Assembly: GCA_963817285.1 (NCBI GenBank)
Contig: CAWFOE010000008.1
Coordinates: forward strand, 123,577 to 187,576
Reading direction: 5' to 3'
Source: an uncultured Pseudomonadota bacterium
Lineage (GTDB): Bacteria > Pseudomonadota > Gammaproteobacteria > Natronospirales > REEB76
DNA length: 64,000 bases
Below the pieces are notes generated by a model. That model saw only the letters and a list, made by a program, of their open reading frames with translations, was not told where the DNA came from and searched no databases. Below, piece by piece: positions 193 to 50,106 of this stretch (its first letter is position 1; every line of letters begins with the position of its first letter). The position numbers and the translations under genes were made by a program.

Positions 193-1159
193 ATGGTCGC
201 GGATAAACGGGCAGTGGCTCATGAAAGCCAAGTCCATCCCCATATGCGTAAGCTCGAGCAAGCCCTCACGGAGGCGAATCGTGTGGTGCTCGGCAAGGAC
301 CCACAGATCCGACTCTGCCTCGCTTGCTTGCTGGCCGGCGGCCATCTGCTCATCGAAGACATCCCCGGCGTGGGCAAGACCACACTCGCCCATACCCTCG
401 CGCGGGTGCTCGGTCTCTCCTATCAGCGCATCCAGTTCACCAGCGACTTATTGCCGGCGGACATCATCGGCGCATCCATCTTCGAGCGGCAGACCGAGAC
501 CTTCCGGTTCCATCCGGGTCCGATCTTCGCGCAGCTGATCCTCGCGGACGAAGTGAACCGTGCTACCCCTAAGACCCAGAGCGCACTCCTGGAAGCCATG
601 GAGGAACGACAGGTGACGGTGGATGGCGAGACGCGCCCCCTGCCTCAGCCTTTCTTCGTCATCGCCACCCAGAATCCCTTGCACCAAGTGGGCACCTTCC
701 CGCTGCCGGAATCCCAGCTGGACCGCTTCCTCATGCGCATCGAACTCGGTTACCCAGGCCAGGATGCGGAACGCGAACTGCTGCAGGGCCGTGACCGGCG
801 CGAGATCCTCGCTGCGCTGCAACCGGCCATGGACATGCGTGACCTCGCTGCATTGCGGGAAGCGACTTCCAAGATCCACGTATCCGACGCGCTCCTGGAT
901 TATCTGCAATCCCTGGTGCGCCATACCCGCAACTCAGCGGCGTACGAGAATGGTCTGTCGCCCCGTGCAGCGCTCGGACTGAAACACGCTGCCCAAGCCT
1001 GGGCGCTGCTGGCCGGCCGGCCCGGTGTGCTGCCGGAAGACCTGCAAGCGGTGTTGCCGGGTGTCGTGGGTCATCGTCTGCGCCCCCGCGGTGGCCAGGA
1101 TGCGCCACCCGCAGCGCAACTCGCCCGTCAACTGCTCGACAGCCGTCCCGATCCCTTAA
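193..1159 (+). CDS. MoxR-family AAA+ ATPase (frame slip near the 3' end in this sequence)
   Basis: Walker A 'GVGKTT', 'ILADEVNRATPKTQSALLEAMEE' and 'FFVIATQNP' motifs. The expected C-terminus '...AVPIP*' (TAA 1157-1159) is in the next frame, implying an indel at about 1135-1145. The 653-aa track ORF 193..2154 is a read-through artefact. Confidence 0.85.
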
Positions 1160-1162
1160 GCC

Positions 1163-2154
1163 ATGTTCACCGCCCTGCGCGCACGATTCCGGCGCCGCAT
1201 CCGGGAATGGGCCCGCAGCCGCCAAGGGCCCGATGGCCGGCGCGTGACCATCGCCCAGCGTCGCCTCTACATCCTACCCACCGGCCAGGGACTGCTCTTC
1301 GGCGTCTCGGTGTTCGTGATGATGCTGGCCTCCATGAACTACGCGAACAGCATGGGCTTCATGCTGGTGTTCCTCCTGGCGTCTCTCGGCATGGTGGCCA
1401 TGAACGCCACCCACGCGAACCTCCTGGGGCTGGCAGATCGATGGGTGAACGTGGAACCGGTGTTCGCCGGCGAGACTGCACGCTTCCAGGTGAAGGTCTC
1501 CAACGCCGGCCGCCAGCTGCGCACTGGCGTGACGCTGGGCGCGGAGGCGGACGAACGCACCATCACCAACGATATCCCGGCGGCCTCAGACAGTCTCGCT
1601 CCCGTGCCGCTCGATCACCACACGCCGCGGCTGGCAGCCCGTCGGCAGACTGGCGGTGGAGACCACCTATCCGCTGGCACTGTTCCATGCCTGGAGTTGG
1701 GCCTATATGGATTGGCGGGTGCTGGTGTATCCGGCACCGGCAGAACGAGGCGCCCCCCATGCCGGAGCCCCTGGGTGGTCGGGGCCTCGGCCGACCTAAC
1801 GACCAGGGAGAAGATGACTTCAGCGGACTGCGTACGTACCAGCCTGGCGATTCACCCCGGCGCATCGCCTGGAAAGCGTCTGCCAAGGAACGGGAGCTGC
1901 TCACCAAACGCTTCTCTGGCACCGGTGAGGAAGCCCGCTGGTTCGATTGGGCTGAACTTGCCGGTCTGGGTGACGAAGCCCGCCTCTCGATCCTGTGCCG
2001 CTGGGTGTTGGAAGCCCACGCCGAAGAGTTAGCTTATGGCTTACGCATGCCCGGCATGCTGATCGTGCCCGCTGCCGGTGAAGAGCAGCGGGACCGCTGC
2101 CTGAAAGCCCTGGCGCTCTTCGGCACGGATAGCACGATGGAAACGGCTGCATGA
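1163..2154 (+). CDS. DUF58 domain protein (at least 2 frame slips)
   Basis: N-terminus with TM helices in frame 2 (MFTALRARF...). Middle 'RLAVETTYPLALFHAWSWAYMDWRVLVYPAP' in frame 0. C-terminus 'DDFSGLRTYQPGDSPRRIAWKASAK' in frame 1. Sits between MoxR and transglutaminase genes as in the conserved triad. Slips at about 1600-1640 and 1745-1760. Confidence 0.8.
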
Positions 2155-4130
2155 CGCCAGACCAGCAGCCCCTGGATTACGCACGGCGTATGGAACAGCA
2201 GCGGCTCGGTTGGACGCTGCTGGCGCTCGTCGCCATGGCAGCGCCCCATGTACCCAACATCGCGCCCTGGATCACCGCCGTGGCCCTGCTGCTCGGCTTC
2301 TGGCGCGTGGCCTGCGCTTGGCGCGGCTGGACGCTACCCTCCCGCAAACTGCTCATGGCACTTGCCATCGGCGAACTGGTCTGCGTGCTGCTCACTTATC
2401 GCACCATCAACGGGCCGGAGCCCGGAGCGGCTCTCCTGCTCCTGCTCGCCACTCTCAAGCTCATGGAGTCAAAGGGCTTGCGGGATTATTTCCTGGTGAT
2501 GATCACGGCCTATTTCATCGGCCTCGCCAACTTCCTCTACGACCAGACTGTGCCATTGGCCCTCTACATGATCCCCGCGGTGTGGATCACCACCGTGGCG
2601 CTCCTGAACGTGGGGCACCCGGACCCTGAGCGCAGCTTCAGGGCTTCTCTCCGCGCCACCGGCCGCCTGCTCTTGCCGGCCCTGCCCCTGGCAGCGGTAT
2701 TGTTCCTGCTGTTCCCGCGCATCTCGGGCCCTTTATGGGGTTTCGCTTCCCAGAAGCACGCGGGTGTCACCGGACTCTCTTCGAGCATGACGCCGGGAGA
2801 CTTGAGCGAACTCGCCCAATCGGATGAGATCGCCTTCAGGGTGAAGTTCGAAGGGCAAGCGCCGCGACCAAGCGCCCTCTATTGGCGCGCCATGGTGCTG
2901 CATGACTACGACGGCAAGACCTGGAGCAGCGGTAACCTGCCCTGGCACCGACAACTAGAGCTCAGCACCCGCGGCCAGGCGGTGAACTACCAAGTCACCC
3001 TGGAGCCCACCAATCTCTCCATCCTCTATGCACTGGACCTGCCGTCGAAGATACCGGAGGATACAGGGCTCTCGGCCAGCTACGAGATAGACACCCGCAC
3101 GCCGGTCACTGAACGCAAACTCTATAGCGCCACGTCGTACACCGATTACAGCTATGGCGCGAACATGCCCAACTGGATGCTGCGGCGCGACCTGCAGCTG
3201 CCCCGAGACGATCCCCGAGCCCATGCGCTGGCGACAGAATGGAGCAACACCGCCAAGTCGCCCGAACAGGTGGTGCAGGATGCGCTCACCATGTTCCACC
3301 AGGAGAAGTTCTCCTACACCCTGCAGCCGGGAGTATTGAGCGGCGACGACCGGATCGACCAGTTCCTGTTCGATACGCGGCGCGGCTTCTGCGAACACTA
3401 TGCGGGTGCCTTCGTGTATCTCATGCGGGCCGCCGGCATCCCGGCTCACGTAGTCATCGGTTATCAGGGCGGTGAGCTGAACCCCGTGGATGGTTATTAC
3501 GTGGTGCGCCAGCAAGAAGCCCATGCCTGGGCGGAGGTCTGGCTGGCTGGCAAGGGCTGGGTGCGGGTGGACCCCACTGCTGCAGTAGACCCGGCCCGTG
3601 TGGAACAGGGTCTCGAGGCTTCACTGCCGGAAGATGAAGTAGCGGATTCCTTCTACATCGCGCACCCCTGGTTCGGGGATGTGCGCAATAGCTGGGATGC
3701 TCTGAACACTGGATGGAACGAATGGGTACTGGCTTACGGTCCGGAACTGCAAGAGAAGTTCTACAAGAAGGTCGGTCTCGACTACGGCGATTGGCTGCAG
3801 CTCGCCCTGGTGCTGGCACTCTGCATCGTCCTGACCCTCGGCTTCTTCTGGCTCTATCTCCTATGGGAACGACGCCGACCGGGAGCTGCGCCGGTAGTAC
3901 GGGATTACGCCCGCTTCTGCGCGCGCTTGGCTCGCATCGGCTTCAGGCGCCAGGCCCATGAGGGTCCGCTGGATTACGGGATACGAGTGGCGCGAGCGCG
4001 TCCAGATCTGGAACGCCAGGTGCTGGACATCACAGACCGCTACATAGAACTACGTTATCTCGACGATGGTGACCGCCACCACTTCAATAAGCTCGTGCGC
4101 GGGTTCCGCCCGGCAAGATCAGCTCGCTGA
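2151..4130 (+). CDS. Transglutaminase-like membrane protein (TgpA-like; N-terminal multi-TM region plus transglutaminase core)
   Basis: Intact 659-aa ORF with ATGA overlap onto the DUF58 stop. Core 'RRGFCEHYAGAFVYLMRAAGIPAHVVIGYQGG ... EAHAWAEVW ... WVRVDPT'. Confidence 0.85.
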   Translation: MTPDQQPLDYARRMEQQRLGWTLLALVAMAAPHVPNIAPWITAVALLLGFWRVACAWRGWTLPSRKLLMALAIGELVCVLLTYRTINGPEPGAALLLLLATLKLMESKGLRDYFLVMITAYFIGLANFLYDQTVPLALYMIPAVWITTVALLNVGHPDPERSFRASLRATGRLLLPALPLAAVLFLLFPRISGPLWGFASQKHAGVTGLSSSMTPGDLSELAQSDEIAFRVKFEGQAPRPSALYWRAMVLHDYDGKTWSSGNLPWHRQLELSTRGQAVNYQVTLEPTNLSILYALDLPSKIPEDTGLSASYEIDTRTPVTERKLYSATSYTDYSYGANMPNWMLRRDLQLPRDDPRAHALATEWSNTAKSPEQVVQDALTMFHQEKFSYTLQPGVLSGDDRIDQFLFDTRRGFCEHYAGAFVYLMRAAGIPAHVVIGYQGGELNPVDGYYVVRQQEAHAWAEVWLAGKGWVRVDPTAAVDPARVEQGLEASLPEDEVADSFYIAHPWFGDVRNSWDALNTGWNEWVLAYGPELQEKFYKKVGLDYGDWLQLALVLALCIVLTLGFFWLYLLWERRRPGAAPVVRDYARFCARLARIGFRRQAHEGPLDYGIRVARARPDLERQVLDITDRYIELRYLDDGDRHHFNKLVRGFRPARSAR

Positions 4131-5375
4131 GCCCTTCACGGACTCGACCCGGGATAGCAGGAAGGCGCCCACGGCGAACAAGATGATCACTGAGAGGATG
4201 GAAGCCCGCGGGCTACCCGTCATGAGGCTCACGGTTCCGATGAGCACCGGACCGATGATGGCGGCGAACTCACCCAGCATGTTATAGAAACCGAAGAACT
4301 CCCCAGCCCGCTCTGCCGGCACGAGACGCGCGTAGTAAGAGCGGCTCAAGAGCTGCACCCCGCCCTGCACCAAGCCGATCATGGCCGCCAGTAGATAGAA
4401 CTGCCAGGCGGCGTGCATGAAGGAAGCGAACACCGACACGAACACGTAGACAGATAGGCCGATGAAGATGCCGTGCTTCGGTCCGATGCGCTCACCGATG
4501 CGACCGAATATCAGGGCTGCCGGTATCCCCACGAACTGCACCAGTACAACCGCGGCGATGAGGTCGCTGGTACCGAAACCGATGGCTTTGCCGTAGTCCA
4601 CTGCCATCTGGATGATGGTGTTGACGCCGTCTATGTAGACCCAATAGGCGATGAGGAACATGAACACGGGCTTGTAGCTGCGCACATGGCGGAAGGTGTC
4701 GCCCAGCTGCCGTAGACCCTGCTTGATCGCCGTGCCGAGACTCTCGCCGGTAGACGCCATGGGTTCCGGTACCCAGAACCAGAGGGGGATGGAGAACAGG
4801 AGCCACCAGACGGCGGTGAGCACGAGGATGACTTTCACCGCCGATGCTGCGTCTTCGAGACCGAACCATTGCGGCTTCTGGCTCATGGCGAGCCCTAGCA
4901 CCAGGAACAGGCCACCGCCGAGATAACCCGAGAAGTAGCCGATGGCGGAGGTCATATCGAACTTGCCGGGCTCCGCCACGCTCACCAGCATGGAATCCCC
5001 GAACACGTTACCCCACCAATAACCGATGGACGCTGCCATGAAGAAGAACATGGCCCACTGCCATTGCCCCAGACCCACGAAGTGCAAAGCGAACACCATG
5101 ACGACCCCGAGGAAAGCCGAGCCCATGAGGAAGCGTTTCTTGTGCCCGCCCTTGTCGGCGATGGCGCCCAGGATGGGCGCCGTGAGGGCCACGATCAGGC
5201 TGGCGCCTGAATTGGCGAGACCGAGACGGAACGTGCTGACGCTGGCGTCGACCCCGTGGTTCCAGTAATCCTTGAAGAAGATGGGGAAGAAGACCGTGAT
5301 GATAGCGGTGGTGAACGCGTGGTTGCCCCAGTAGTACAGGGCCCAACCTTTCACCTTGCGGCTCAGCTTCAGCAT
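4119..5375 (-). CDS. MFS transporter (UMF1/Atg22-like family, recollection-level call)
   Basis: Intact 418-aa ORF, hydrophobic throughout with about 12 TM-like segments. Convergent 12-nt overlap with the transglutaminase gene. Confidence 0.7.
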   Translation of the reverse strand: MLKLSRKVKGWALYYWGNHAFTTAIITVFFPIFFKDYWNHGVDASVSTFRLGLANSGASLIVALTAPILGAIADKGGHKKRFLMGSAFLGVVMVFALHFVGLGQWQWAMFFFMAASIGYWWGNVFGDSMLVSVAEPGKFDMTSAIGYFSGYLGGGLFLVLGLAMSQKPQWFGLEDAASAVKVILVLTAVWWLLFSIPLWFWVPEPMASTGESLGTAIKQGLRQLGDTFRHVRSYKPVFMFLIAYWVYIDGVNTIIQMAVDYGKAIGFGTSDLIAAVVLVQFVGIPAALIFGRIGERIGPKHGIFIGLSVYVFVSVFASFMHAAWQFYLLAAMIGLVQGGVQLLSRSYYARLVPAERAGEFFGFYNMLGEFAAIIGPVLIGTVSLMTGSPRASILSVIILFAVGAFLLSRVESVKGSAS

Positions 5376-5549
5376 GTCTCACCCCCATAATCGGAAGGGT
5401 TAGCCTAGCACGTAAGCCTTTCAAAAGCGTCGCGAGCGCAGGCAGGACGAGGCGCGCGAGGCGAGTACCCGGTGCGTACTCTTATGTACGTGAGGGCGGC
5501 GAGTCGCAGCGCAACAAAGTCATGGCAAGCGCAGCAGCTTTTGAATGGC

Positions 5550-7149
5550 TTACGCGGCTAATGCGGTCTCGATACCGTGTTCACGCGTCTTACGGAAGCG
5601 CACATCCGGCCAGCGTTCCTGGGTGAGCTGCAGGTTCACCTGGGTAGGGGCTATGTAGACCAAGCTGCCGGTGTGATCCAGCGCCAGGTTGTCGAAGGCC
5701 TTGTCCCGAAATTCCTCCAGGCGCTTCTCGTCGTCACATTCCACCCAGCGGGCAGTGGCCACGGAGATGCCTTCGAAGATGCATTCCACGCCGTACTCTT
5801 CCTTCAAGCGGAAAGCGACGACGTCGAACTGCAGCAGGCCCACGGCCCCCAGGATCAGCTCGTTGCTGCGCAGAGGCTTGAACAGCTGGGTGGCGCCCTC
5901 TTCGCAGAGCTGGGCCAGACCCTTGTTGAGGGCTTTGGCTTTCAGCGGGATCCTTGAGGATGGCACGGCGGAATATCTCCGGCGCGAAGTTGGGGATCCC
6001 GGTGAAGGTGAGGGTCTCGCCCTGGGTGAATGTGTCGCCGATGGCCACGGTGCCGTGGTTATGCACGCCGATGATGTCGCCGGCATAGGCTTCTTCCACC
6101 CGCTCGCGATCCGCCGCCATGAAGGTCATGGCATCGGCGATCTTCACTTCACGGCCGATACGCACATGTTTCACGCGCATACCGGGCACGTAACGCCCCG
6201 AGCACAGGCGCACGAAAGCGATGCGATCGTGGTGCTGCGGGTCCATGTTAGCCTGGATCTTAAACACGAACCCCGTGAGCTTCTCCTCGCCCGGTTGCAC
6301 TTCCCGGCTGGAGGTGGCCCGGGGGCGCGGCGCGGGAGCATGGGCCACGAACTCGTCCAAGAGTTCGCGCACGCCGAAGTTGCTGATGGCGGAACCGAAG
6401 AACACCGGCGTGAGACGGCCAGCTAGGTACTCTGCCAGATCGAAGTCATGGGAAGCGCCGCGCACCAGCTCCACTTCGGCGCGATAGCTCTCGGCGTCGG
6501 AGCCCAGGAGTTCGCCGGCTTCCGCGCTCATCAGGCCCTGGATGACCCGGGTCTCGCCCAGGCGTCCGCTCTTCTCACCCTCATAGATGTGGATGCGGTC
6601 CGTACCAAAATGGTAGATGCCCTTGAGAGCCCGGCCCATGCCGATGGGCCAGGTGACTGGCGCGCAACGGATCTTGAGCACGGACTCTACTTCGTCCAGT
6701 AGCACCATGGGATCCCGGGCATCCCGATCCAGTTTGTTGATGAAGGTCATGATGGGTGTGTCTCGCAGACGGCACACGTCCATGAGCTTGATGGTGCGCT
6801 CTTCCACACCCTTGGCGCAGTCGATGACCATGAGCGCCGAATCCACAGCTGTCAGAGTGCGATAGGTGTCTTCGGAGAAGTCCTCGTGGCCCGGGGTGTC
6901 CAGCAGGTTCACGATGCAGTCGCGATAAGGGAACTGCATGACCGAGGAGGTCACGGAGATACCGCGTTGCTGCTCCAGCTTCATCCAATCGGAAGTGGCG
7001 TGGCGCGCGGCCTTACGGCCTTTCACGGCGCCCGCCATCTGGATGGCGCCGCCGAACAACAGGAGCTTCTCCGTCAGCGTGGTCTTGCCGGCGTCCGGAT
7101 GGGAGATGATGGCGAAGGTACGCCGCCGGCGGATTTCCTGGTCCAACAT
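5550..7149 (-). CDS. prfC: Peptide chain release factor 3 (one frame slip at about 5948)
   Basis: GTPase motifs '[18 protein letters not shown]', 'DTPGHEDF', 'NKLDR'. The C-terminal part '...[52 protein letters not shown]...' continues in the 5550..6086 frame. Confidence 0.9.
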
Positions 7150-7206: not shown

Positions 7207-7680
7207 TCAGCTTACGGATAGGTCCTTGGCGAGGATGAGGGCATCTTCCCGGCCTTTCTCGCCCGGATAATAGTTCTTGCGCATGCCCACTTCGTTGAAG
7301 CCCCGCCCGCGGTAGAGGGCGATGGCCTGATGGTTGGAGAGGCGCACTTCCAGGAACATCTGCCCCGCGCCACGTTCCTGGGCCAGCTCCATGAAGTGAT
7401 CCAAGAGCAGCCGACCGTAGCCCTGGCGCTGCCAATCCGGGGAGACACAGATGTTGAGGAGATGAGCCTCGCCCACCACCAGGGACATGACGCCGTAGCC
7501 CGCTACCTGGCCTGAGAGTTCCAAGACCCAGCAGCAATAACCCACCCTCAGGCAATCCCGGAAGATGCCGTCGGTCCAATGGAACTGGTAGGCGCTGCGC
7601 TCAATCTCCATGACCAGGCGCAGGTCCCCCTCGTGCATGGGCCGGCAGACCGGCAACTCATGCTTCACTACCGCGCTCAC
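7207..7680 (-). CDS. rimI: Ribosomal-protein-alanine N-acetyltransferase (GNAT)
   Basis: Intact 157-aa GNAT ORF ('QRQGYGRLLL', 'ALYRGRGFNEVGMRKNYYP'). 4-nt overlap with the upstream UDG gene. Confidence 0.7.
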   Translation of the reverse strand: MSAVVKHELPVCRPMHEGDLRLVMEIERSAYQFHWTDGIFRDCLRVGYCCWVLELSGQVAGYGVMSLVVGEAHLLNICVSPDWQRQGYGRLLLDHFMELAQERGAGQMFLEVRLSNHQAIALYRGRGFNEVGMRKNYYPGEKGREDALILAKDLSVS

Positions 7681-8405
7681 GGCGCCGCTTCCTTGAGGGT
7701 CTGCACCGCGAGCTTGAGATCAGTCCAGGACTTGCGCTTCTCGCCGGGTGAGCGCAGCAGGTAGGCGGGATGGTAGGTGACCACCACAGGCACGCCACCT
7801 AGGCGATGTACGGTGCCGCGCAGACGGCCGATGGTGGTGTCGGTATGCAGCAGGTTCTGGGCCGCGATACGCCCCACCGCCAGGATGATCTTGGGCTGGA
7901 TGAGCGCGATCTGACGCTCCAGGAAGGGGCGGCAGAGCTCGGCTTCTTCCGGTTTGGGGTCGCGGTTACCGGGAGGTCGGCATTTCAGCACGTTGGCGAT
8001 GTAGACCTGCTCGCGCTTGAGGCCGATGGCCATGAGCATGGAATTCAGGAGCTGTCCGGCGCGGCCAACGAAGGGCTCACCTTGCCGATCTTCATCGGCC
8101 CCCGGCGCTTCACCGATGACAAGCCATCTCGCACTCTCATCACCCACACCGAACACGGTCTGGGTGCAACCGGCGCGCAGCCCGCAAGCAGTGCACTCCT
8201 TCACGGCAGCCTTGAGGGCGGTCCAATCCATGGCAGCGATGGCGGCAGCCCGCTCACCGGGTGCGACGCTGAGCTGCACGCTGACGGAAGCGGCCGGCGC
8301 TTGCGTGGGTCGAGCGGGTCTTAAGGCTTGGGCGGTGGCAGCGCGTCTCGAGACCCAGGGCGTGATGCCGAGGTCATGCAGGCGGCCGAGGCGTTTCGCA
8401 TCCAT
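7677..8405 (-). CDS. Uracil-DNA glycosylase, family 4
   Basis: 'CTACGL...C', '[29 protein letters not shown]' and '[12 protein letters not shown]' motifs. Confidence 0.8.
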
Positions 8406-8415: not shown

Positions 8416-10315
<1,900 letters not shown>

Positions 10316-10395
10316 GGGGTCCGCCGCCGCTAGGCTCCAGGGAGCACAGGCCGTTAGAATACGGTCTTTCCGCTCCAAAACCTATAAGTACACCC

Positions 10396-12124
10396 ATGCG
10401 CGCCTCCCGCTTCCCGCTGAACACCGTCAAGGAAACCCCCGCCGATGCGGAGACCATGAGCCATAAGCTCATGCTGCGCTCCGGCATGCTGCGCAAGCTC
10501 GCCGCCGGCATCTATACCTGGACGCCGCTGGGCTTACGGGTGCTCGCTAAAGTAGAGGGCATCGTGCGCGAGGAGATGGACCGGGCCGGCGCCCTGGAGA
10601 TGCTCATGCCTTCGGTGCAGCCGCGGGAACTGTGGGAAGAGACGGGTCGCTGGGAGAAGTTCGGTGGACAGCTCCTCAAGATGAAGGATCGCAAGGACCA
10701 GGAATACTGCTACGGCCCCACCCATGAAGAGGTGGTGACGGATTGGGCTCGAGCGGAACTGAAGAGCTACAAACAGTTGCCCCTGAACGTCTACCAGATC
10801 CAGACCAAGTTCCGGGACGAGATCCGCCCGCGCTTCGGCGTGATGCGTGCCCGCGAGTTCATCATGAAGGACGCCTATTCCTTCCATGCGACAGAAACCG
10901 ATCTGGCGCGGGAATACCAGAACATGTACGACACCTATGCGCGTATCTTCACGCGCCTGGGCCTCAAGTTCCGCGCCGTGAAGGCCGACACCGGCGCCAT
11001 CGGCGGCAACGCCTCCCATGAGTTCCATGTGCTGGCCGAATCCGGTGAAGACGCCATCGCCTTCTCCTCCGGTTCCGATTACGCGGCCAACGTGGAGCTG
11101 GCGGAAGCCCTGGCGCCCGCCGGCCCGCGCCCGGCCCCGGGTGCCACGCTGGAGACGGTGGATACGCCCACCCAGAAGACCATCGATGAGCTGACGGCCT
11201 TCCTCAAGATCGATCCCGAAGCAGTGCGTGAAGACCATCATCGTGCGCGGCGAGAAGGGTCTGGTGGCTCTGTGCCTGCGCGGCGATCACGAGATAAACG
11301 AGGCGAAGGCCGCGAAGCTCCCGGAACTCCCAGGCGAGTCGGTGCTGGCGGACGAGAGCCGAGATCTGGAAAGCCATCCAGTGCAAGCCGGGCTTCATCG
11401 GCCCGGTGAAACTGCCCAAGGACATGCCCATGATCGTGGACCGGGCCGCGGCGGCAACTGACCGATTTCGTCTGCGGTGCCAACGAGGCGGGCAAGCATT
11501 ACAAAGGCGCCAACTGGGAGCGAGACGCGCATGTCACGCGGGTAGAAGATCTGCGCAAGGTGAAGGACGGCGATCCTTCACCCGATGGCAAGGGCACCTT
11601 GAGCATCGGCCGGGGCATCGAGGTGGGTCACGTGTTCTCCCTGGGCAGCCAAGTATGCGAAAGCCATGAGGCGCTACGGTGCTGGACCACCAGGGCAAGG
11701 CCGTGCCTCTGCAGATGGGCTGCTACGGCCTCGGCGTGACCCGGGTGGTGGCGGCAGCCATCGAACAGAACCACGACGAGCGCGGCATCATCTGGCCCGC
11801 ACCTCTCGACGCCTTTCGACGTCGCGCTCCTGCCCCTCAACATGGCGCAAGTCCGAGAAGCTCAAGGCCGCGGCTGAGAAACTCTATCAAGGAGCTGCAG
11901 GCCGCGGGCTATGACGTGCTCATGGACGACCGGGACCTGCGCCCCGGCCCCATGTTCGCGGACGTGGAACTCATCGGCATCCCGCACCGGTTGGTGCTGT
12001 CGGAGCGCGGTCTCGATGCGGGCACGGTGGAATACAAGGGTCGGCGCGATGCGGAAAACCAGAACATCCCCGCAGGCGAGCTCATGGCCTTCCTGAAGAA
12101 GCGGCTCCCGCCGCAGCCGCCTGA
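10396..12124 (+). CDS. proS: Proline--tRNA ligase (about 6-7 frame slips between 11220 and 12110)
   Basis: N-terminal 275 aa are intact ('[44 protein letters not shown]', '[31 protein letters not shown]'). Later pieces ('[24 protein letters not shown]', '[12 protein letters not shown]', '[11 protein letters not shown]', '[39 protein letters not shown]', '[18 protein letters not shown]') are scattered over all three frames. The 3' end is uncertain. Confidence 0.88.
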
Positions 12125-12700
12125 TGCGCGGACCGGGCTGGGATGGGGTCTACTGCTCGCCGGCCTCCTGGCCGGCAGCCCCGCCCATGCCCAGAAGTTC
12201 TCCACGCCGGATCCGGAGCTCATCGCCCTGGTGCAGCAGGCGGAGGACGATAAGAGGATTTCACGGACAAGTACGACGAGCAGGTCTGGCTCACGGATAT
12301 GTCCCTGCGTCTCGCGGACATCGTGCCGGACCCGGACGAACGCCTGAAGCTCCTCAAGATGATCCACGCGGAAGCGAGTCGCGCCCAGCTGCCACCGCAG
12401 CTGGTGCTGGCCCTCATCCAGGTGGAGAGCAAGTTCGACCCCTATGCCGTATCCCACGCCGGCGCTGTGGGTCTGATGCAGATCATGCCCTTCTGGCTGA
12501 AGCTCATCGGCCGGCCCGACGACAGTCTGGTGCACGCCAAGACCAACCTGCGCATGGGCTGCACCATCCTGAAGTATTACCTCGGCAAATCCCATGGCGA
12601 CATCCGCGAGGCGCTGCAACGCTACAACGGCGCCACGGTAGGGATCGACTATTCGGACAGCGTGCTCAAGGCCTTGAGCAGGAAATGGTCCTGGAACTGA
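12124..12700 (+). CDS. Lytic transglycosylase (SLT domain), secreted (2 frame slips at about 12135 and 12265)
   Basis: Signal-like '[18 protein letters not shown]'. SLT core '[30 protein letters not shown]' with the catalytic E in 'VES'. ATG 12124 overlaps a TGA (TGATG) that could be the proS stop. Confidence 0.75.
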
Positions 12701-13000
12701 GAGCTCTCAGCGGTCTTAAACCCCTCGGCAGCTCCTCGGTCTCTCGAACGTCAGCGATCTCGATCTGTTCGACCTTCGCTGCCGGTGGGCCTTGCCAAAG
12801 CCACTCAATCAACTCTTTAACCTTCGCTTCTTCTCCACAAGCCAGCACTTCGACCCGGCCGTCTGGCAGGTTCTTGGCATAGCCGGTGACACCAAGGCCC
12901 GGGCACGCTCGGCGGCGCTAGCACGGTAGAACACGCCCTGCACTTTGCGACCGGAAACCAAACAACGTTTGATAGACCCGCTGTGATGATCCTGACGCAA
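12666..13000 (-). CDS. acyP: Acylphosphatase (frame slip at about 12895; start uncertain, TTG 13000 or ATG 13048)
   Basis: '[22 protein letters not shown]' joins '[43 protein letters not shown]' across two frames. Confidence 0.7.
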
Positions 13001-13059
13001 TAAATGAGAAAGGCCCCTTGCGGGGCCTTTTCGCGCTATCGACTTCAAGAAGAAGGAGC

Positions 13060-13812
13060 CTAGTTACCGCCAGCAGCGTACTTCCGGTCCTTCTTGTCGG
13101 CCTTGTGGCCGCGCCAGGCACCGCGATGCTTGGCGTAGTTCACAGCGGCGTCCACATCGGACTGGACCGGGTTCTTGCTTCACGTCCAGATCCTGCTTCG
13201 GATAGATGAGGTCCGCGTGCTTGATCTTGTCGGCATTGGCCTTGTAGATCAGCGGCCACTGGTAGGGGTTGCCGTACACGTCGGACTTGCCGGCGATGCG
13301 CCAGAGGCTGTCGCCCTTGACGACGCTGTAGGTCATCTTGGCAGCCTGCAGTTCGGCGACCAGGGCCGAGAGGGTGTCATAGGCAGCCTTGCAGTTGCCG
13401 TTGGTGTCGTCGGTCTGGGCCTGGGTCAGGCGGGCCTGCTGGTCGGCGGTGAGGCCTTTGTAAGCCCTGGGCCTGGGCGGCAGATCCTTCGCCTTGGCGC
13501 AGTAGCACGCGTTCTGCGCGTCGGTGGCCACCTGCTTCGCCTGGGCGGCGAGCTGCTGGGCCTTGGCGTTGTCGCCGCTCTGTCGCGGCAGCCTGAGCCT
13601 GGGTGATCAGGTCGGCGGCATTGCCAGTGTCGGTGCAAGGCGCCTGGGCGCTCGCGACCACGGCCTGGGCATCACTGATGGCCTGGGTGGTGGCGGCAGC
13701 AGGCTGCGGAGCAGCGGCAGCGGCGAGGAGCAGGCGCTGGCTTGGTAGCGCAACCGGCGATCAGGCCGGCGGCAAGCAACAGCACTGCGGATTGCTTGAG
13801 TAAATTCTTCAT
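13060..13812 (-). CDS. LysM-domain lipoprotein (several frame slips)
   Basis: Lipobox N-terminus 'MKNLLKQSAVLLLAAGLIAGCATKPA'. LysM 'YSVVKGDSLWRIAGKSDVYGNPYQWPLIYKANADKIKHADLIYPKQDL'. The tail 'NPVQSDVDAAVNYAKHRGAWRGHKADKKDRKYAAGGN*' is in another frame. Confidence 0.7.
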
Positions 13813-14013
13813 GGTGTTGTCTCCGACCTCAAAATTGTTTTTCTGCGAGATAATGGCAATGGGGACACGCTACAGGAGACCCCATCTACTCATTATTGAG
13901 TGGCAAGGTTAGCCCTCCGGCAACTCCGGTGTCAAGGAAACAGCGAGCATTAACATAAGGAAAATCACGGGAGTTTCACGGCGGATTAGCGGCCAGATAC
14001 GTCTTGTCCCTGA

Positions 14014-14315
14014 CTAATCTCCGAGGGCTTTCAGTGCAGACTGTTGGGCTTTCAGTGCGTCTTCCCGGGCCGTGGAATAGTCACCGGCATCCAGGGCCGT
14101 CTGGGCAGCGTCCAGGTAATGTCGGGCGTTTTCCATATCCACCGGCGAGCTCTTCTCCGCCTGGGCCTGTTGGGCGGCTGCCAGGCTCTGGCGCGCGTTG
14201 CTCATCTCCTGCACCGGCGCGCCGGCGCAGGCGAACAGCATGAGCGTGCCACTGCGACCACAAACAGACGCAAGGCGCGGGCCGCGATGTATTTGGCGAT
14301 ATCCAGGGGGAGCAC
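14014..14315 (-). CDS. DUF4398-like small lipoprotein (frame slip at about 14245; GTG start inferred)
   Basis: Lipobox '...LFVVAVA/TLMLFACAG', then 'APVQEMSNARQSLAAAQQAQAEKSSPVDMENARHYLDAAQTALDAGDYSTAREDALKAQQSALKA', a helical A/Q-rich pattern typical of DUF4398. Confidence 0.55.
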
Positions 14316-14395
14316 CGTGATTCGTTGATGCCTTAACCGGAGGCCACGCTAGCAGCGCCCGCCGATGACCGTCAAGCGCGCCCTCTGCGCTATAG

Positions 14396-15719
<1,324 letters not shown>

Positions 15720-22869: not shown

Positions 22870-23003
22870 GGCGATGGTCGCGGGTTCGGATGGGATGGCG
22901 GCGCATTCTAGCATCCCGGCTCGGGAGCACAGGCCGGCCGCGGGGCTATGGCATAATTCAATGCCTGCCTACCGGCCGCATAAGAAGCAGACTGAACCCG
23001 CCC

Positions 23004-25083
23004 ATGCCGCAGAAAGACCGCGACATCCTAGTCACCTACGCCCTGCCCTACGCCAACGGCTCCATACACCTGGGGCACCTGGTGGGATATATCTCCACCG
23101 ACATCTGGGTGCGCTACCAGAAGATGTCCGGGCAGGACTGCATTTACGTCTGCGCTGACGATGCCCATGGCACGCCCATCATGCTGAAGGCGCGGGAACT
23201 CGGCATCACCCCCGAGGAGCTGATCGCCGGGGTCAAGGTGGAGCACGAGCGGGACTTCAAGGATTTCCTGATCAGCTTCGACAACTACCACAGCACGCAC
23301 AGCGACGAGAACCGGGAGCTGGCGACGCTCATCTACAAGAACCTGCGGGACGCGAAGCCCAGCCATATCGCGGTACGCACGATCCGCCAGTTCTACGACG
23401 AGCAGGCCACGATGTTCCTGCCGGACCGCTTCATCAAGGGCACCTGCCCGCGCTGCGCCACGCCGGACCAGTACGGCGATTCCTGCGAGAACTGCGGCGC
23501 CACCTACAGCCCGGCCGACCTCAAGAACCCGGTGTCGGTGATCTCCGGCTGCCGCCCGGTGGAACGCGAGTCTGAGCATTACTTCTTCAAGCTCGGCGAC
23601 TTCGACACGATGCTGCACGAGTGGACCCGCGCAGGCCACCTGCACGAGGCCGGTGCACCCGCAAGCTGGATGAGTGGTTCGCCGCCGGCCTGCAGGACTG
23701 GGACATCTCGCGCGACGCGCCCTACTTCGGCTTCGAGATACCCGATGCACCGGGCAAGTACTTCTACGTGTGGCTGGACGCGCCCATCGGCTACATGGCG
23801 AGCTTCAAGAACCTGTGTGCCCGCCGCAAGGACCTGGACTTCGATTCCTACTGGAAGAAGGGCAGCACCAAAGAGGTGTACCACTTCATCGGCAAGGACA
23901 TCATCTATTTCCATTCGCTGTTCTGGCCGGCGATGCTCCAGGGCGCGGGCTTCCGCACGCCCACCGCGGTGTATGCCCACGGCTTCCTGACGGTGAACGG
24001 CCAGAAGATGTCCAAGTCCCGCGGGCACCTTCATCAAGGGCGCGTACATATCTGGATGCGGGCTGCACCCGGAATATCTGCGCTACTACTTCGCCGCGAA
24101 ATTTGGACCGGGCATCGATGACATCGATTTCAATCTGGACGATTTTTCGCAGCGGGTGAACAGGGACTTGATTGGCAAGCTCGTCAACATCGCAAGTCGT
24201 TGCGCTGGTTTCATAACGAAAAAATTTAATGGTGAAATTAATTGCCGGCAGTCTCCATGACTATGGGGCTGAACGAGGCGGATTGAATCCAGTAAAATTA
24301 CTGGGGAACTAAAGTCACCGCGCCGACAACATAGCCCAGGCCTACGAGAATCGGGAATACGGCCAGCGCCATCCGCGAGGTGATGGATGTCGCCGACAGT
24401 GCGAACGGATACATAGATGAAGTAAAGCCATGGGCCCAGGCGAAACAGCACCGGTAGCGACAGACGTTGCAGCACGACCTGCTCCATTGCTTTCAACCTG
24501 TTTAGCCTGTTCATGATCTACTTAAAACCGGTGCTGCCCAAGCTGGCTGCGCAGGTTGAAAATAATTTCCTGGCGATACCTCCTCTTAAGTGGAGCGATG
24601 CCAATTCGCTTCGACCGCTAATGGGCACAAGATCAAACCTTACGACACCCCTGATGGGACGTGTGGATCCTAAACAAGATAGACACCATGGTCGAGTCCT
24701 CCAAGGAAGACCTGGCGAAAACCACTCAGAAGGCATCGAACATGGATCCCATCGCCGCGGAGATCAGCTACGACGACTTCGCCAAGATAGACCTGCGCAT
24801 CGCGCGCATCGTCAAAGCGGAGCACGTGGAAGGCGCCGACAAACTGCTCAGGCTGACCTTGGATATCGGCGAAGGCACACGCAACGTGTTCGCCGGCATC
24901 AAGAGCGCATATACCCCCGAGCAGCTCGAGGGCAAGCTCACGGTGATGGTGGCGAACCTGGCACCGCGCAAGATGAAGTTCGGCATGTCCGAAGGAATGG
25001 TGCTGGCAGCGGGCCCCGGCGGCAAGGACCTGTGGATCCTCGAACCGCATCAGGGCGCGCAACCCGGGATGAAGGTGAAGTAA
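23004..25083 (+). CDS. metG: Methionine--tRNA ligase (about 7 frame slips plus in-frame stops, densest in 24000-24700)
   Basis: '[19 protein letters not shown]', Zn knuckle '[18 protein letters not shown]', 'KMSKSRG'. Anticodon-binding region '[25 protein letters not shown]', '[18 protein letters not shown]'. C-terminal EMAP/Trbp111 domain '[50 protein letters not shown]...[22 protein letters not shown]'. Pieces are spread over three frames. Confidence 0.9.
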
Positions 25084-25094
25084 CCTCCCCTGCC

Positions 25095-25727
25095 GTGGCC
25101 ACGGTAGACAAAATCGACGCCCTGCTACCGCAGACCCAATGCACCCGCTGCGGCTATCCCGATTGCCGCGCTTACGCTGAAGCCATCGTGCGGGACGAGA
25201 CCGGCATCGATCGCTGCCCGCCCGGGGGCGATGACACTCTGCGGGATCTCTCGATACTTCTGCAGCGCACAGTCAACGGGTTGGACCCGGCGGTCGGTGC
25301 GTTCACTGTCGGTACCGTGGCTTTCATCGATGAACCCCTCTGTATAGGCTGCACCAAGTGCATCGACGCCTGCCCGATGGATGCCATCGTGGGCGGACCC
25401 AAGCTCATGCACACAGTGGTGGAAGCCCTTTGTACCGGCTGTGAACTCTGTCTACCCCCCTGCCCCGTGGATTGCATACGACTGGTACCGACCCAGGGCG
25501 TGACCGAAGGTTATGAAGGCTGGCAGTTCCCTCAAGGCGGTCGTGATCGCGCCGATGCCCTGCGCAGCCGCTATCAGCGCCACGCCGAACGCCAGGACCG
25601 CGAACAGGACGCACGGCGGGAACGCGCCACACAGCGGAGCGCCGTGGCGGACCGGAAAGCAGAGATCGCCGCGGCCGTGGCGCGTGTGCGGGCGAAACGC
25701 GCGCAGTCCGCCCCGGGGAAACACTGA
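25095..25727 (+). CDS. RnfB-like ferredoxin (4Fe-4S dicluster protein upstream of nth)
   Basis: GTG 25095 start inferred. '[33 protein letters not shown]', '[16 protein letters not shown]', '[16 protein letters not shown]'. The track ORF 24513..25727 is a chimera with out-of-frame metG. Confidence 0.72.
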
Positions 25728-25728
25728 G

Positions 25729-26420
25729 ATGAACCCGGAGAAACGCGCTGAGATCTATCGCCGGCTGCGGGCCGCGAACCCGAAGCCCACCACCGAACTG
25801 CAATACCAGACACCCTACGAATTGCTGGTGTCAGTCACTCTCTCGGCTCAGGCCACGGACAAGAGCGTGAACGCGGCCACGGTGAAGCTCTTCCCGCTGG
25901 CCAACACCCCCGCCGCCATGCTCAAACTCGGTGAAGCGGGACTGAAACCCTATATCCAGACCATCGGCCTCTATAACACCAAGGCCAAGAACATCATCGC
26001 TGCAGCCCGGATGCTGCTGGAACAGCACGGCGGCGAAGTGCCCCGGGACAGGGAAGCCCTGGAAGCGTTGCCGGGGGTGGGCCGCAAGACCGCCAACGTG
26101 GTGCTTAACACCGCCTTCGGAGAGCCTACCATCGCCGTGGACACCCATATCTTCCGGGTCGGCAACCGCACGGGACTGGCGCCGGGCAAGGACGTGCGGG
26201 CGGTGGAAGACACGCTGGTGAAGTTCACGCCGGATGAGTTCAAGCAGGACGCCCACCATTGGCTGATCCTGCATGGGCGCTACGTGTGCAAAGCCCGCAA
26301 GCCCGAGTGCCCCCGCTGCTCGATCGCTGATCTCTGTGAGTACAAGCAGAAGACTAAACCTGAACCCGAAGTGCCCTCGCCCTGGGCAAGAAGAAACCCG
26401 CCAAGGCACGCAAGCGCTAG
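25729..26420 (+). CDS. nth: Endonuclease III (frame slip at about 26380)
   Basis: 'TPYELLVSVTLSAQATDKSVN', HhH 'LPGVGRKTANVVLN', 'DTHIFRV' and the 4Fe-4S 'CKARKPECPRCSIADLCEY' motif. The likely tail 'LALGKKKPAKARKR*' (TAG 26418-26420) is in another frame. Confidence 0.9.
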
Positions 26421-26430
26421 AATCACGCCC

Positions 26431-26861
26431 ATGTACAACAGCAACCGCAGCGATACCCGTCAGCCGTTCTTCGACGCCTGGAAGAAGATGCAGGCGGGCA
26501 GCCCATGACGGCACTGGAGACCATCATCGCCGACGTCATCCGGCTGCACCCGGAATACCATCCGCTGCTGGCGGACGGTGGCCAGCAACCTGGACAAGGA
26601 CTGGCTGCCGGAAGGTGGCGAGACCAATCCCTTCCTGCATATGGGGATGCACATCGCCATCCGCGAGCAACTCTCCATCGACCGGCCCGCCGGTATCAAG
26701 GCTGCTCACGCTGCGCTCCTGGCCCGCGGGCCCGCGATGCCCACGCAGTCGAACACCTCATGCTGGAATGTCTGGGGGAAGCCCTGTGGCGGGCGCAGCG
26801 GGAGAATCGGCTACCGGACGAGAAGGCCTATCTCGCCTGTATCAAAACGCGTACGACCTAG
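26431..26861 (+). CDS. DUF1841 family protein (2 frame slips at about 26575 and 26740)
   Basis: 'MYNSNRSDTRQPFFDAWKKMQAG', 'IIADVIRLHPEYHPLL', 'NPFLHMGMHIAIREQLSIDRPAGI' and 'DAHAVEHLMLECLGEALWRAQRENRLPDEKAYL' lie in three frames. Confidence 0.7.
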
Positions 26862-26869
26862 ACCTGTCC

Positions 26870-27172
26870 CTATTCGGGTTCCGCCGGTTTCGTCAACAGC
26901 ATGAACAAGGCCACGGCCATGAGGCCTTCCGGCGCCTTGTCGATGTGCTTGCGGAAGTTCTCCATGCTGTCCATGCGGTTGTTGGTGGAGCTGTACACGT
27001 CCGTATCCCGCAGGAAAGCCATGCGCCGGTTCAGGGAATCGTAGATGTCGTTGCCGCGCACGTAACCCATGCGGCGGTTGACCGCGTCGAAGACGGTGTT
27101 GTCCCGCGCGTAACCCAGGCGGTTCCGGTTGCGATCGTAGAGGTCGCTGCCCTGCATGCGGTATTCCGCCAT
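26870..27172 (-). CDS. Small hypothetical protein with four tandem 16-aa repeats
   Basis: Intact 100-aa ORF with high third-position GC and a GAGGG RBS 8 nt after the DsbA-like stop. Repeats: LYDRNRNRLGYARDNT / VFDAVNRRMGYVRGND / IYDSLNRRMAFLRDTD / VYSSTNNRMDSMENFR. Short hydrophobic C-terminal segment 'GLMAVALFMLL'. Confidence 0.55.
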   Translation of the reverse strand: MAEYRMQGSDLYDRNRNRLGYARDNTVFDAVNRRMGYVRGNDIYDSLNRRMAFLRDTDVYSSTNNRMDSMENFRKHIDKAPEGLMAVALFMLLTKPAEPE

Positions 27173-27180
27173 GACGGACC

Positions 27181-27934
27181 CTCAGGGTTTCTGCGTAGCG
27201 GCCTTGGGTTTGTGCACCAAGGCGTACTGCTGCTCGATGAGCTTGCTCAGTTCCTCGTAGGCATGGCTCCCGCGCGCCCTGCCCCGTTAACCCCGTAGCT
27301 CGGCGTGGCGTTGATGCCGAGCGCTTCGCCATAGGCCTGGCTTCTCGCCACATCGCCGTGGGTGGTGCCCGCCCGCACACAACCCAGGATCGCGCCGGGA
27401 TCTAGGCCCAGTTCCTGCGCATAAGCCTGGAACTTGGCGATGGGGTCGGGGAGTTCAGCCCACTCCTGCTGGCGGGCGTAGAGCAGATCGTGCATGGGCC
27501 AGAAATGCCCGAGGGTACCGGCGCAACGCGCCACTAGGGAAGCCATCATGGCGTTCTTGTGGATGTCCAGGGGGTAATCGAAGAACACGAAGCGCACCAT
27601 GCCGGTGTCCACGTAATCCTTGCGCATCTTCTCCAGCACCGGCTCGAAGGCGCTGCAGGCGGGGCACTGGTAGTCGGCGAACTCGCGCACCACCACGGGT
27701 GCGTCCGCCTGGCCTAGGGACACGCCCACCACGTCCTCCTCGGGCACGAACTGCACCTGAGGCGCATTGGCCGCGGCGGCCTCGGTCTCGGCGCTCTGCT
27801 CCGCCGTCCCTGCCCGGCCACGGATGATGAGGATGCCCGTATAGACGATGGCGACGATCAGGCAGCGCTATGCCTCCGTAGAGCCAATAGCGGGAGCGAT
27901 CGGGCGGAACGGCCTTGTCAGCTGGCTTCTGCAT
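27181..27934 (-). CDS. DsbA-family thiol:disulfide oxidoreductase, membrane-anchored/periplasmic (2 frame slips at about 27255 and 27850)
   Basis: N-terminal anchor 'MQKPADKAVPPDRSRYWLYGGIAL...'. Thioredoxin motif 'FADYQCPACSAF', 'VRFVFFDYPLDIHKNAMMAS', 'GINATPSYGVNG'. The tail 'AYEELSKLIEQQYALVHKPKAATQKP*' is in another frame. Confidence 0.72.
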
Positions 27935-31278: not shown

Positions 31279-31287
31279 CATTCGAGT

Positions 31288-34491: not shown

Positions 34492-35790
34492 ATGTCATTT
34501 TCGTCCCTCGGCCTTTCGGCCGAATTGCTGCGTGCTGTCACCGAACAGGGCTATACCGAGCCCACCCCCGTCCAGTCGCAAGCCATCCCCGTGGTCCTCA
34601 CCGGCCGCGACCTGCAAGCCGCCGCCCAGACGGGCACCGGCAAGACCGCCGGCTTCACCCTGCCGCTGTTGCAGCGCCTGCAGGCTGCCCCCGTCCCCCA
34701 GGCGCATAAGCGCCCGGTGCGCGTGCTCATCCTCACCCCCACCCGCGAACTCGCCGCCCAGGTGGGTGAGAGCGTGCCGACTTACGGCAAGTACCTGCGC
34801 TTCCAGTGCGTGACCATCTTCGGCGGTGTGAACATCAACCCGCAGATAGACAAGCTGCGCCGCGGCGTGGACATCGTCATCGCCACACCTGGCCGGCTCC
34901 TCGACCACGTGGAACAGCGGACCATCGACCTCTCCAGGGTAGAGATCCTAGTGCTGGACGAGGCGGACCGCATGCTGGACATGGGCTTCATTCGCGACAT
35001 CCGCCGCATCCTGACGCTACTACCCTCGGGCCGGCAGAACCTGATGTTCTCCGCCACCTTCTCCGATGACATCCGCAAGCTCGCGGGCGGCATCCTGCGT
35101 GATCCGGCCACAATCGACGTGGCACCGCGCAACTCCACCGCCGAGCGGGTGAGCCAGCGAGTCTATCCTGTGGATCAGCACCGCAAGCGCGTACTGCTGG
35201 CGCAGCTCATCAAGGAAGGCGATTGGAAACAGGTGCTGGTCTTCACCCGCACCAAGCACGGCGCCAACCGCTTGGCCGAACAGCTCGCCAAGGAAGGCAT
35301 CCAGTCGTCTGCCATCCACGGCAACAAGAGCCAGGGTGCCCGCACCCGTGCGCTCGCCGATTTCAAACAGAACCGGGTCCGGGTGCTGGTGGCGACGGAC
35401 ATCGCCGCCCGTGGCCTGGACATCGACCAGCTGCCCCACGTGGTGAACTACGAGTTGCCGAACGTGCCGGAAGATTACGTGCACCGCATCGGCCGCACCG
35501 GTCGTGCTGGTAGCTCGGGTGAAGCGGTGTCGCTGGTGGCCGGCCCCGAACGGAGCCTGCTGCGAGACATCGAACGCCTGCTCCGCCAGGAGATACCCCA
35601 GACGATAGTGCCGGGATTCGAGCCGGGCTCGGGTCCCGCGCCGGAAGCGGAGCAGCGTGAGCCCCGTCAGGGCCACGGACAGCGCCGCGGTCATGGCGGT
35701 GGTGGCGGACATCGCAGCGGCCATAGCCGCCCCGGTTCCCGCGACCATGGTCGTAGCAGCGGCCGTCAGCGCAGCAGTGGCAATCGCTAA
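34492..35790 (+). CDS. rhlE: ATP-dependent RNA helicase RhlE (DEAD-box)
   Basis: Q-motif 'GYTEPTPVQ', 'AQTGTGKT', 'PTRELA', 'DEAD', 'SAT', '[10 protein letters not shown]'. Basic Gly/Arg/His-rich tail. Confidence 0.9.
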
Positions 35791-49082: not shown

Positions 49083-49728
49083 ATGGACGAGACCCGAGCC
49101 CCGCACCCCTTCTCGCACGCGTTTCCGCGGCTTCCTGCCTGTGGTGGTGGACGTGGAGACCGGCGGCTTCAACCATCAGACCGATGCACTCCTGGAGATC
49201 GCCGGAGTGATGCTTGAGATGGACGAAGACGGGCATATCAGCCGTGGCGAGACCCACACCTACCACGTGGAACCCTTCGAGGGCGCGAATCTCGAACCAG
49301 CGGCCCTGGCCATCACGGGCATAGATCCGCATCATCCGCTGCGCCCGGCCCTGCCGGAGCGGGAAGTCCTGCGGCGACTGTTCCGGGAAGTACGCAATGA
49401 GCTGGATAAATATGGCTGCAACCGCGCCGTGCTGGTGGGCCACAATGCTTTCTTCGATCTGAACTTCTTGAACGCTGCCGTGGCCCGCAGCGGCGTGAAA
49501 CGCAATCCCTTCCATCCCTTCTCGAGCTTCGACACCGCGACCTTGGGTGGTGTAGCCGTGGGTCAGACCGTGTTGGCCCGGGCCGTGGAAGCGGTCGGTC
49601 TGGCCTGGGATAGCTCCGCGGCCCATTCCGCCGCCTACGATGCCGAGAAGACTGCCGATCTCTTCTGCGAGATCGTGAACCGCTTCCGACCCATATACAC
49701 AGCTTCCCTGCCTACCGGTCTGTCATAA
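49083..49728 (+). CDS. rnt: Ribonuclease T (frame slip at about 49112)
   Basis: '[17 protein letters not shown]', '[13 protein letters not shown]', '[20 protein letters not shown]' (DEDDh exonuclease). ATG 49083 is in a different frame from the body. Confidence 0.87.
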
Positions 49729-49750
49729 AAAAACGGGGCTTGCGCCCCGT
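49727..49750 (-). terminator. Intrinsic terminator after grxD (hairpin shared with the convergent rnt)
   Basis: Stem acggggc/gccccgt (49733-49750). On the minus strand it is followed by the U-run encoded by A7 at 49727-49733. Confidence 0.7.
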
Positions 49751-49785
49751 CTCAGTTCCGATCCTCCCCGAAAAGCATTCTTTCT

Positions 49786-50106
49786 TCAGGAATGCGTGAT
49801 GCTCTTCTCGTCGAATAGTTTCTGAGTTCGCCCGACTGGAACATCTCCACCACGATGTCACAGCCACCCACCAGTTCGCCCTTGACGAACAGCTGTGGGA
49901 AAGTGGGCCAGTTGGAATATTGGGCAGGTTGGCGCGCACCTCTGGTTCTGTCAGCACGTTCACGTGACCGAACTCCACGCCCAGGGTCTTCAGCACCTGG
50001 GTGGTACGGGCCGAGAAACCGCATTGGGGAAAGTCCGGCGTACCCTTCATGAAGAGTACGACCGGCTGGCGTCTATCTCTTGCTTGATGCGTTCCACAAT
50101 ATCCAT
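49786..50106 (-). CDS. grxD: Monothiol glutaredoxin, Grx4 family (3 frame slips at about 50065, 49925, 49815)
   Basis: '[13 protein letters not shown]', '[24 protein letters not shown]', '[32 protein letters not shown]' and '[12 protein letters not shown]' are reconstructed across frames. Confidence 0.85.

Follow-up and report, generated by a model that had tools for sequence, protein, structure and literature searches.

The window, that is the whole 64,000-nt stretch analyzed here and the frame of all coordinates below, is very probably part of a strain-collapsed metagenome contig whose consensus was degraded where strains differ, while the genes of the organism itself would be intact. Judged from the sequence comparisons, the substitutions in the affected patches are real strain alleles and it is mainly the indels that are artefacts. 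The source is probably a long-read assembly, a platform that we infer only because the contig is 278 kb long and the sister assemblies carry Flye-style "contig_N" names.

Frame-Broken Genes and Chimeric ORFs

Frame changes were located by tblastn of intact reference proteins, taken from near-identical or closely related contigs, against the window, and the DNA alignments were checked too. A sequence-only reading of this DNA had proposed at least 24 frame-broken genes. All 20 genes that it named carry at least one frame change each, and the count is 20, not 24; its list of patches was borne out by the alignments, with the slips falling inside them. Slip patch 1 (1140..1747, plus strand) affects two genes that are intact in the sister contig contig_615: moxR (intact at 321 aa in contig_615) has a +1 at 1140 that removes its stop codon, and DUF58 (intact at 329 aa) has a +1 at 1429, a -1 at 1445, and a +1 at both 1613 and 1747. 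Together these slips produce the chimeric ORF 193..2154. Slip patch 2 (9450..14700) covers ilvC (slips 9450 to 9698), proS (nine insertions, 11214 to 12107), SLT (12132 and 12257), the LysM protein (13174 to 13726), and the frame-changed acyP, DUF4398, and ArsC genes; beyond ~11.0 kb the patch is a segment 3-10% divergent from contig_615. The metG gene (23004..25083, plus strand) changes frame six times from 23650 to 24680 and includes a low-GC, hypervariable stretch (24200-24680); the gene is intact in contig_615 (676 aa) and also in the outgroup MAG L001. Slip patch 4 (26375..27861) includes the C-terminus of nth (slip at ~26375), DUF1841, and DsbA (27259 and 27861), and slip patch 5 (49115..50071) includes rnt (+1 at 49115), an intergenic +1 at 49753, and grxD (-1 at 49823, 49920, and ~50071). 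Isolated +1 slips were found in five minus-strand genes: prfC (C at 5946, splitting a 532-aa gene into a 471-aa ORF and an RF3_C fragment), pssA (C at 8557), hda (C at 15988), dcd (21556, G on the plus strand), and MbnB/DUF692 (G at 33258; intact at 287 aa in a third contig, contig_95754). In coding sequence the slips number about 60. The alignments are free of slips at 15.0-15.9, 16.0-21.5, 28.7-33.2, 35.8-49.0, and 50.14-64 kb.

Five long ORFs that had been called chimeric (193..2154, 14438..15382, 11679..12347, 24513..25727, and 25513..26508) are indeed chimeras by tblastn. A further one is the 366-aa ORF 22890..23990, which consists of the metG N-terminus and then runs out of frame; the real gene apbC occupies the minus strand at 21781-22914. 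One more slip, suspected in a BON-domain gene near 50516, was ruled out, the Logan contig L169 being gap-free against 50140-51521. Rfam and tRNA scans over the window gave no matches, and look-ups of UDG 7677..8405, the shadow ORF 50623..51492, and the window's own truncated prfC also returned none.

The Broken Genes Are Intact in Other Assemblies

For each broken gene, an intact counterpart is present on a contig of another assembly that is near-identical or closely related to the window, and the homologues of these genes are single uninterrupted ORFs. De Bruijn (Logan) contigs with 97.6-99.7% identity span 12 of the window indels and contain none of them: L083 (99.7% identical) lacks the dcd indel at 21556, as does contig_615; seven frameshifting indels between 26375 and 27861 are missing from L084; and L170 (99.6% identical) lacks the first four indels of patch 5 (49115, 49753, 49823, and 49920). 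The genes dcd, DsbA, DUF1841, rnt, and the covered part of grxD are thereby found intact, and four more Logan contigs align without gaps over 9.1 kb in which the window has no slips. In the sister contig (ERZ25039518 contig_615) all window-broken genes at 1-33 kb are intact; for patches 1 and 2 this contig is the sole intact reference, and it is of the same style as the window.

Other assemblies of the same population have slips of their own, in genes that are intact in the window. In contig_615, valS is fragmented and tgpA is interrupted at the equivalent of position 3206, a place at which the window does not differ from a Logan contig. The third contig (ERZ25039522 contig_95754) has its own set of 11 indels, at 28969-31714 in window coordinates, a region in which the window equals contig_615. 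These comparisons bear on the possibility that the indels are real, either as gene loss in reductive evolution or as shifts tolerated through recoding or programmed frameshifting. The deposited sequence does contain the indels, and a truncated 471-aa prfC product from the 278-kb contig is on record; however, the indels are missing from every independent contig of 97.6-99.7% identity, the sister assemblies have different genes broken, and the homologues are uninterrupted. We regard real indels as extremely improbable.

Coding Constraint Is Kept in the Broken Genes

After removal of the indels no stop codon remained in 5,111 codons of 18 broken genes. Mismatches fall mainly on the third position of codons, with counts at positions 1/2/3 of 18/5/77 in proS, 43/22/125 in metG, and 1/1/20 in moxR, and 18 of the 22 ProS residue differences match residues of other natural ProS proteins. 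Pseudogenisation would be expected to bring relaxed selection, seen as an even spread over codon positions and as nonsense codons, and these genes display neither; nor did the contig comparison reproduce the lesions in independent samples of the lineage. Programmed frameshifting or recoding would rely on a single conserved slippery site common to the homologues. The inspected slip contexts are instead heterogeneous and have no common slippery motif, and up to nine shifts fall within one gene, an essential synthetase. A variant in which very recent massive decay or recoding left lesions too young for nonsense codons or relaxed substitutions is likewise highly implausible.

Pseudogene-rich reductive genomes such as that of Mycobacterium leprae have nonsense codons, larger deletions, relaxed constraint, and lesions that are reproducible between isolates. 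The window resembles them in its many interrupted genes, housekeeping genes included, but none of their decay hallmarks hold in it. The argument from essentiality made in the sequence-only reading can be kept for proS and metG, on which it rests, but not for dcd and ilvC, which are not strictly essential.

Slip Density Follows Strain Divergence

The clustering of slips is far beyond chance. Frameshifting indels occur at 0.12/kb in bins that match the sister contig vs 14/kb in the most divergent bins, and across 33 kb the slip density rises with the local divergence between window and sister contig (Spearman 0.63, p = 2e-19). At sites where the window and contig_615 differ, the outgroup L001 sides about equally with both; because the divergence is symmetric in this respect, it represents real strain variation. 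Among 80 single-base indels (49 insertions vs 31 deletions), 64 do not adjoin the same base and are thus not homopolymer changes, which led us to reject homopolymer error as the explanation and differs from the classic nanopore signature of homopolymer deletions.

Plain long-read error in low-coverage or unpolished sequence, where depth or polishing failed in patches without any strain mixture, has to be weighed against these results. Six slips (1140, 5946, 8557, 15988, 21556, and 33258) are isolated +1 insertions in nearly invariant sequence that is otherwise identical to the sister contig, and these need plain consensus error, not haplotype mixing. Mismatches are few in the slip patch of contig_95754 at 30.0-31.7 kb, and patch 5 is only ~1.3% divergent from L170, with indels that do not adjoin mismatches. 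Against plain error as the general cause, slip density follows real strain divergence across 33 kb, the patch sequence is a mix of alleles with indels at hybrid junctions (see below), and private substitutions are almost absent from the window (0 in 3,146 nt at 2483-5628 and 5 in 2,200 nt at 26.1-28.3 kb), so that the raw error is not generally high. We consider plain error unlikely as the whole explanation, though with an appreciable chance of being right; it overlaps with strain collapse, because splitting reads among haplotypes also cuts depth. The sequence-only reading had attributed the slips to patchy sequence or assembly error and not to pseudogenisation. Error is supported by the independent contigs, by the intact genes of the sister contig, by the assembly-specific slips, by coding constraint, and by the position of the slips in strain-variable segments and at hybrid junctions, but the patches are strain-variable and not simply error-prone read regions.

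Haplotype Alleles Alternate at 26.1-28.3 kb

The region 26.1-28.3 kb is the sole patch for which a pure second haplotype (haplotype B, L084) is available, and the hybrid-junction test covers this region; a search for the ProS of a pure second haplotype found nothing closer than that of contig_615 (96%). The window alleles in this region comprise 387 of haplotype B, 37 of haplotype A, and 5 private ones, with A and B alleles alternating within tens of bases. Slip patch 4 is thus haplotype B with intruding A alleles, its indels sit at out-of-register A/B junctions, and each indel in the region reads as an A/B hybrid. The indels are nearer to intruding A alleles than expected by chance (P = 0.004, and 0.009 in a nearly pure B stretch).

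A mosaic of backbone and patches could also result from natural recombination within one real strain, with only the indels being erroneous. In favor of recombination, the substitutions in the patches are genuine alleles, the haplotypes number at least three, and the window at 2483-5628 equals a Logan contig exactly while 46 sites there differ from contig_615. Recombination does not explain the alternation of A and B within tens of bases or the out-of-register joins, however, and it leaves the concentration of indels in recombined tracts unexplained unless the sample held several haplotypes. We judge it improbable, and strain collapse remains our preferred reading.

Discussion

Long-read assemblers collapse strains into a species-level consensus (10.1101/2023.01.31.526521), and frameshift errors occur in long-read consensus (PMC9262707). 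In the mechanism that we propose, several close strains would share a nearly identical backbone and differ by 3-20% in short patches. On the backbone the reads would agree and give a clean consensus, with frameshifting indels at ~0.1/kb. Where the patches vary, reads of different haplotypes would either be split, so that each haplotype has less depth, or be stacked in one pile, and the consensus may then blend alleles and join haplotypes out of register, leaving one- or two-base indels and broken frames. The exact consensus step that failed we can only infer.

The window shares with long-read consensus frameshift errors (the problem addressed by the IDEEL test) that one- or two-base indels split genes which are full length in relatives, and that the indels disappear with short-read or independent data (PMC9262707). 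It differs in that its errors are mostly non-homopolymer and concentrated in strain-variable patches, not evenly spread. With the strain collapse and strain switches of metaFlye assemblies described in the Strainy preprint (10.1101/2023.01.31.526521), it shares one contig standing for several strains and the interleaving of haplotype alleles. The preprint describes collapse and strain switches; that out-of-register hybrid joins may cause frameshifts in hypervariable codons is suggested by the window and does not come from that work.

The broken frames hold no biological novelty and do not touch any open question in biology. Their value lies in data quality, as a curation warning: the translations of about 20 genes within 50 kb of a public contig are wrong, six or more long ORFs are chimeric, and protein databases already contain a truncated prfC product. 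This genome would mislead anyone who draws on it to reconstruct metabolism, count pseudogenes, or cluster proteins. The combination of frameshifts that track strain-variable patches, real substitutions biased to third positions, and hybrid haplotype joins forms a signature of strain collapse that tells such artefacts from pseudogenes and from uniform read error.

Window and compared assemblies

The window (59-65% G+C) comes from an uncultured gammaproteobacterium whose nearest species-representative genome is the soil MAG DASYGE010000007 (L001), collinear with window positions 13062-34262 at ~84% nucleotide identity. No RNA genes were found within the window by Rfam and tRNA scans. Its truncated prfC product is already on record from the 278,459-nt contig (NCBI, ENA). 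The comparison DNA consisted of independent assemblies encoding proteins identical to intact window genes. The sister contigs are from ENA: the 260-kb contig_615 of ERZ25039518 (L082/L086, haplotype A) covers window positions 1-32943 with a ~100% identical backbone and patches of 3-20% divergence, and contig_95754 of ERZ25039522 (L087) covers 24480-35707 at 94.4% identity overall. Independent de Bruijn contigs were taken from Logan runs ERR12035940 (L085, 2483-5628, 100%; L088, 24966-25987, 98.6%; L084 or haplotype B, 26118-28344, 97.6%), ERR10755941 (L083, 18514-23408, 99.7%), ERR11523669 (L170, 45610-49983, 99.6%), SRR28062043 (L169, 50140-51521, 99.9%) and ERR10755945 (L081, 51258-54837, 99.8%).

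Broken genes in the window

The sequence-only reading had counted at least 24 genes disrupted by slips (small indels that change the reading frame). When intact reference proteins were compared with the window by tblastn, 18 genes at 1-34 kb showed frame changes, and Pfam and alignment with L170 added rnt and grxD; all the genes named were broken in the patches named, but they number 20, not 24. The slips per gene are roughly as proposed (nine in proS vs. the six to seven suggested, six in metG and three in grxD). The regions called intact are indeed intact in comparison with contig_615, 80 JGI relatives and L169: there are no gaps against contig_615 at 16.0-21.5 and 29.0-32.5 kb, and no frame junctions supported by the JGI relatives and L169 at 35.8-49.0 kb or past 50.14 kb. 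The five ORFs suspected to be chimeric are all chimeras by tblastn with reference proteins, and a 366-aa ORF (22890..23990) is a sixth. The corrected spans are 23004-25083 for metG and 21781-22914 (minus strand) for apbC.

In the BON-domain gene (50147-50700), one distant relative hinted at a shift of frame near 50516, but a Logan contig that is 99.9% identical and aligns without gaps rules this out. The 289-aa ORF at 50623-51492 (minus strand) is a shadow ORF of the real gene, which encodes a 204-aa Urate_ox_N protein (50815-51429, plus strand), and the start codon of pyrC is the ATG at 48010, which overlaps the gene before it (ATGA), rather than the GTG at 47806. Two neighboring MbnB/DUF692-HvfC_N loci, at 28330-31224 (plus strand) and, with DoxX, at 31291-34146 (minus strand), presumably resemble bufferin-type RiPP clusters; the second contains two tandem BufA1 (PF10048) precursor genes (33424-33714 and 33874-34146).

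The slips are not real mutations

Four lines of evidence show, as had been proposed, that the slips are errors and not pseudogenisation. All 12 window-specific indels lying under a Logan contig (21556 in dcd, seven in 26375-27861 and four in 49115-49920) are absent from that contig, while slip-free window stretches under four Logan contigs align over 9.1 kb without gaps. All broken genes of 1-33 kb are intact in contig_615 (moxR 321 aa, DUF58 329, prfC 532, pssA 277, ilvC 329, proS 572, hda 237, dcd 188, metG 676, nth 230, DUF1841 142 and DsbA 251). After indel removal the 18 broken genes contain no internal stop in 5,111 codons, and their differences from the reference fall mostly at third codon positions (mismatches at positions 1/2/3: proS 18/5/77, metG 43/22/125, moxR 1/1/20, hda 2/0/13). 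Frame-corrected ProS is 96% identical to contig_615 ProS, and 18 of the 22 differing residues are used in other natural ProS proteins. With up to nine frameshifts per gene and no relaxed constraint, the broken genes are therefore not pseudogenes.

The sister contigs are broken elsewhere. In contig_615, tgpA is interrupted at a site (window position 3206) where window and L085 are exactly identical, and valS is fragmented too; contig_95754 carries 11 small indels in a segment (window positions 28969-31714) that is identical between window and contig_615. Since the sister contigs have their own frameshifted genes, the quality problem is common to the whole assembly set. Against real gene decay or recoding stand the independent contigs, the coding constraint that is kept, the high number of shifts per essential gene, the absence of a common motif and the fact that other genes are broken in the sister assemblies. 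The frameshifted tgpA and valS lie at L086 13019-14997 and 18274-21599; in contig_95754 (L087 4231-6544) MbnB, HvfC and one hypothetical gene are split.

Slips follow strain divergence and, in one patch, mixed haplotypes

The window differs from contig_615 by 0-3 mismatches per 500 nt at 15-23, 25-26 and 29-33 kb and by 3-20% at 11-15, 23-25 and 26-29 kb, where the indels are located. Counted in 200-nt bins, frameshifting indels climb from 0.12 per kb where there are 0-1 mismatches to 14 per kb where there are >20, and indel density follows divergence (Spearman 0.63, p = 2e-19). This patch divergence reflects true variation among strains rather than read error, because it is biased to third positions and the outgroup L001 sides with the window and contig_615 about equally at differing sites (51 vs. 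42 in bin 27000).

Both haplotypes are in hand for one patch, 26118-28344, where 387 discriminating sites match haplotype B and 37 haplotype A, with only five private substitutions. Its indels look like A/B hybrids: at 26495 the window takes the A-type gap but lacks the base that compensates for it in A, and at 26725 a prefix from A runs into a suffix from B with an offset of two bases. The sole indels of a nearly pure B stretch, 27259 and 27861, have a rare intruding A allele at a distance of 11 and 2 nt, respectively. Indels are nearer to intruding alleles than by chance (P = 0.004 overall, 0.009 in the pure B stretch). Seen more broadly, the window is likewise a mosaic: it matches the ERR12035940 strain at 46/46 discriminating sites in 2483-5628, matches contig_615 at 29-33 kb and carries a third haplotype in metG. 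Natural recombination would account for this mosaic, but leaves the out-of-register joins unexplained.

The ERR12035940 contigs match the window exactly at 2483-5628 and at only 97.6% at 26118-28344, and thus this run contains a strain whose sequence the window tracks in part of its segments and departs from in others. Within metG, the anticodon-binding part (24200-24680) is low in GC and highly variable, and the window version is closer to the 84%-identical outgroup MAG than to the near-identical sister contig, which suggests that real allele exchange has occurred inside this essential gene.

A probable strain-collapsed contig

The explanation with the best support is that the window belongs to a strain-collapsed contig. 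Reads would all agree, and the consensus come out clean, wherever strains are identical; where they are several percent apart, reads would be either split up or stacked together, leaving a consensus that could blend alleles and join haplotypes out of register. It is known that long-read assemblers merge differing strains into a species-level consensus (10.1101/2023.01.31.526521) and that indels in long-read consensus give rise to frameshifted gene calls (PMC9262707). A long-read assembly is suggested by the 278-kb length of the contig and by the Flye-style naming of its sister contigs. Six solitary +1 insertions, each of C or G, fall in nearly invariant sequence (1140, 5946, 8557, 15988, 21556 and 33258) and instead resemble the ordinary errors left over in a consensus. 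Uniform low-coverage error can account for such isolated slips, but not for the link to real divergence or the hybrid joins. The error spectrum (49 insertions vs. 31 deletions; 64/80 single-base indels without the same base adjacent) differs from the classic homopolymer type.

The sequence-only observation was thus accurate and its interpretation right, given the independent contigs, the coding constraint and the sister-contig slips, with one refinement: the patches are strain-variable segments that combine real substitutions with artefactual indels. Nothing in this is biologically new; it serves as a curation warning about the deposited contig and the proteins predicted from it.
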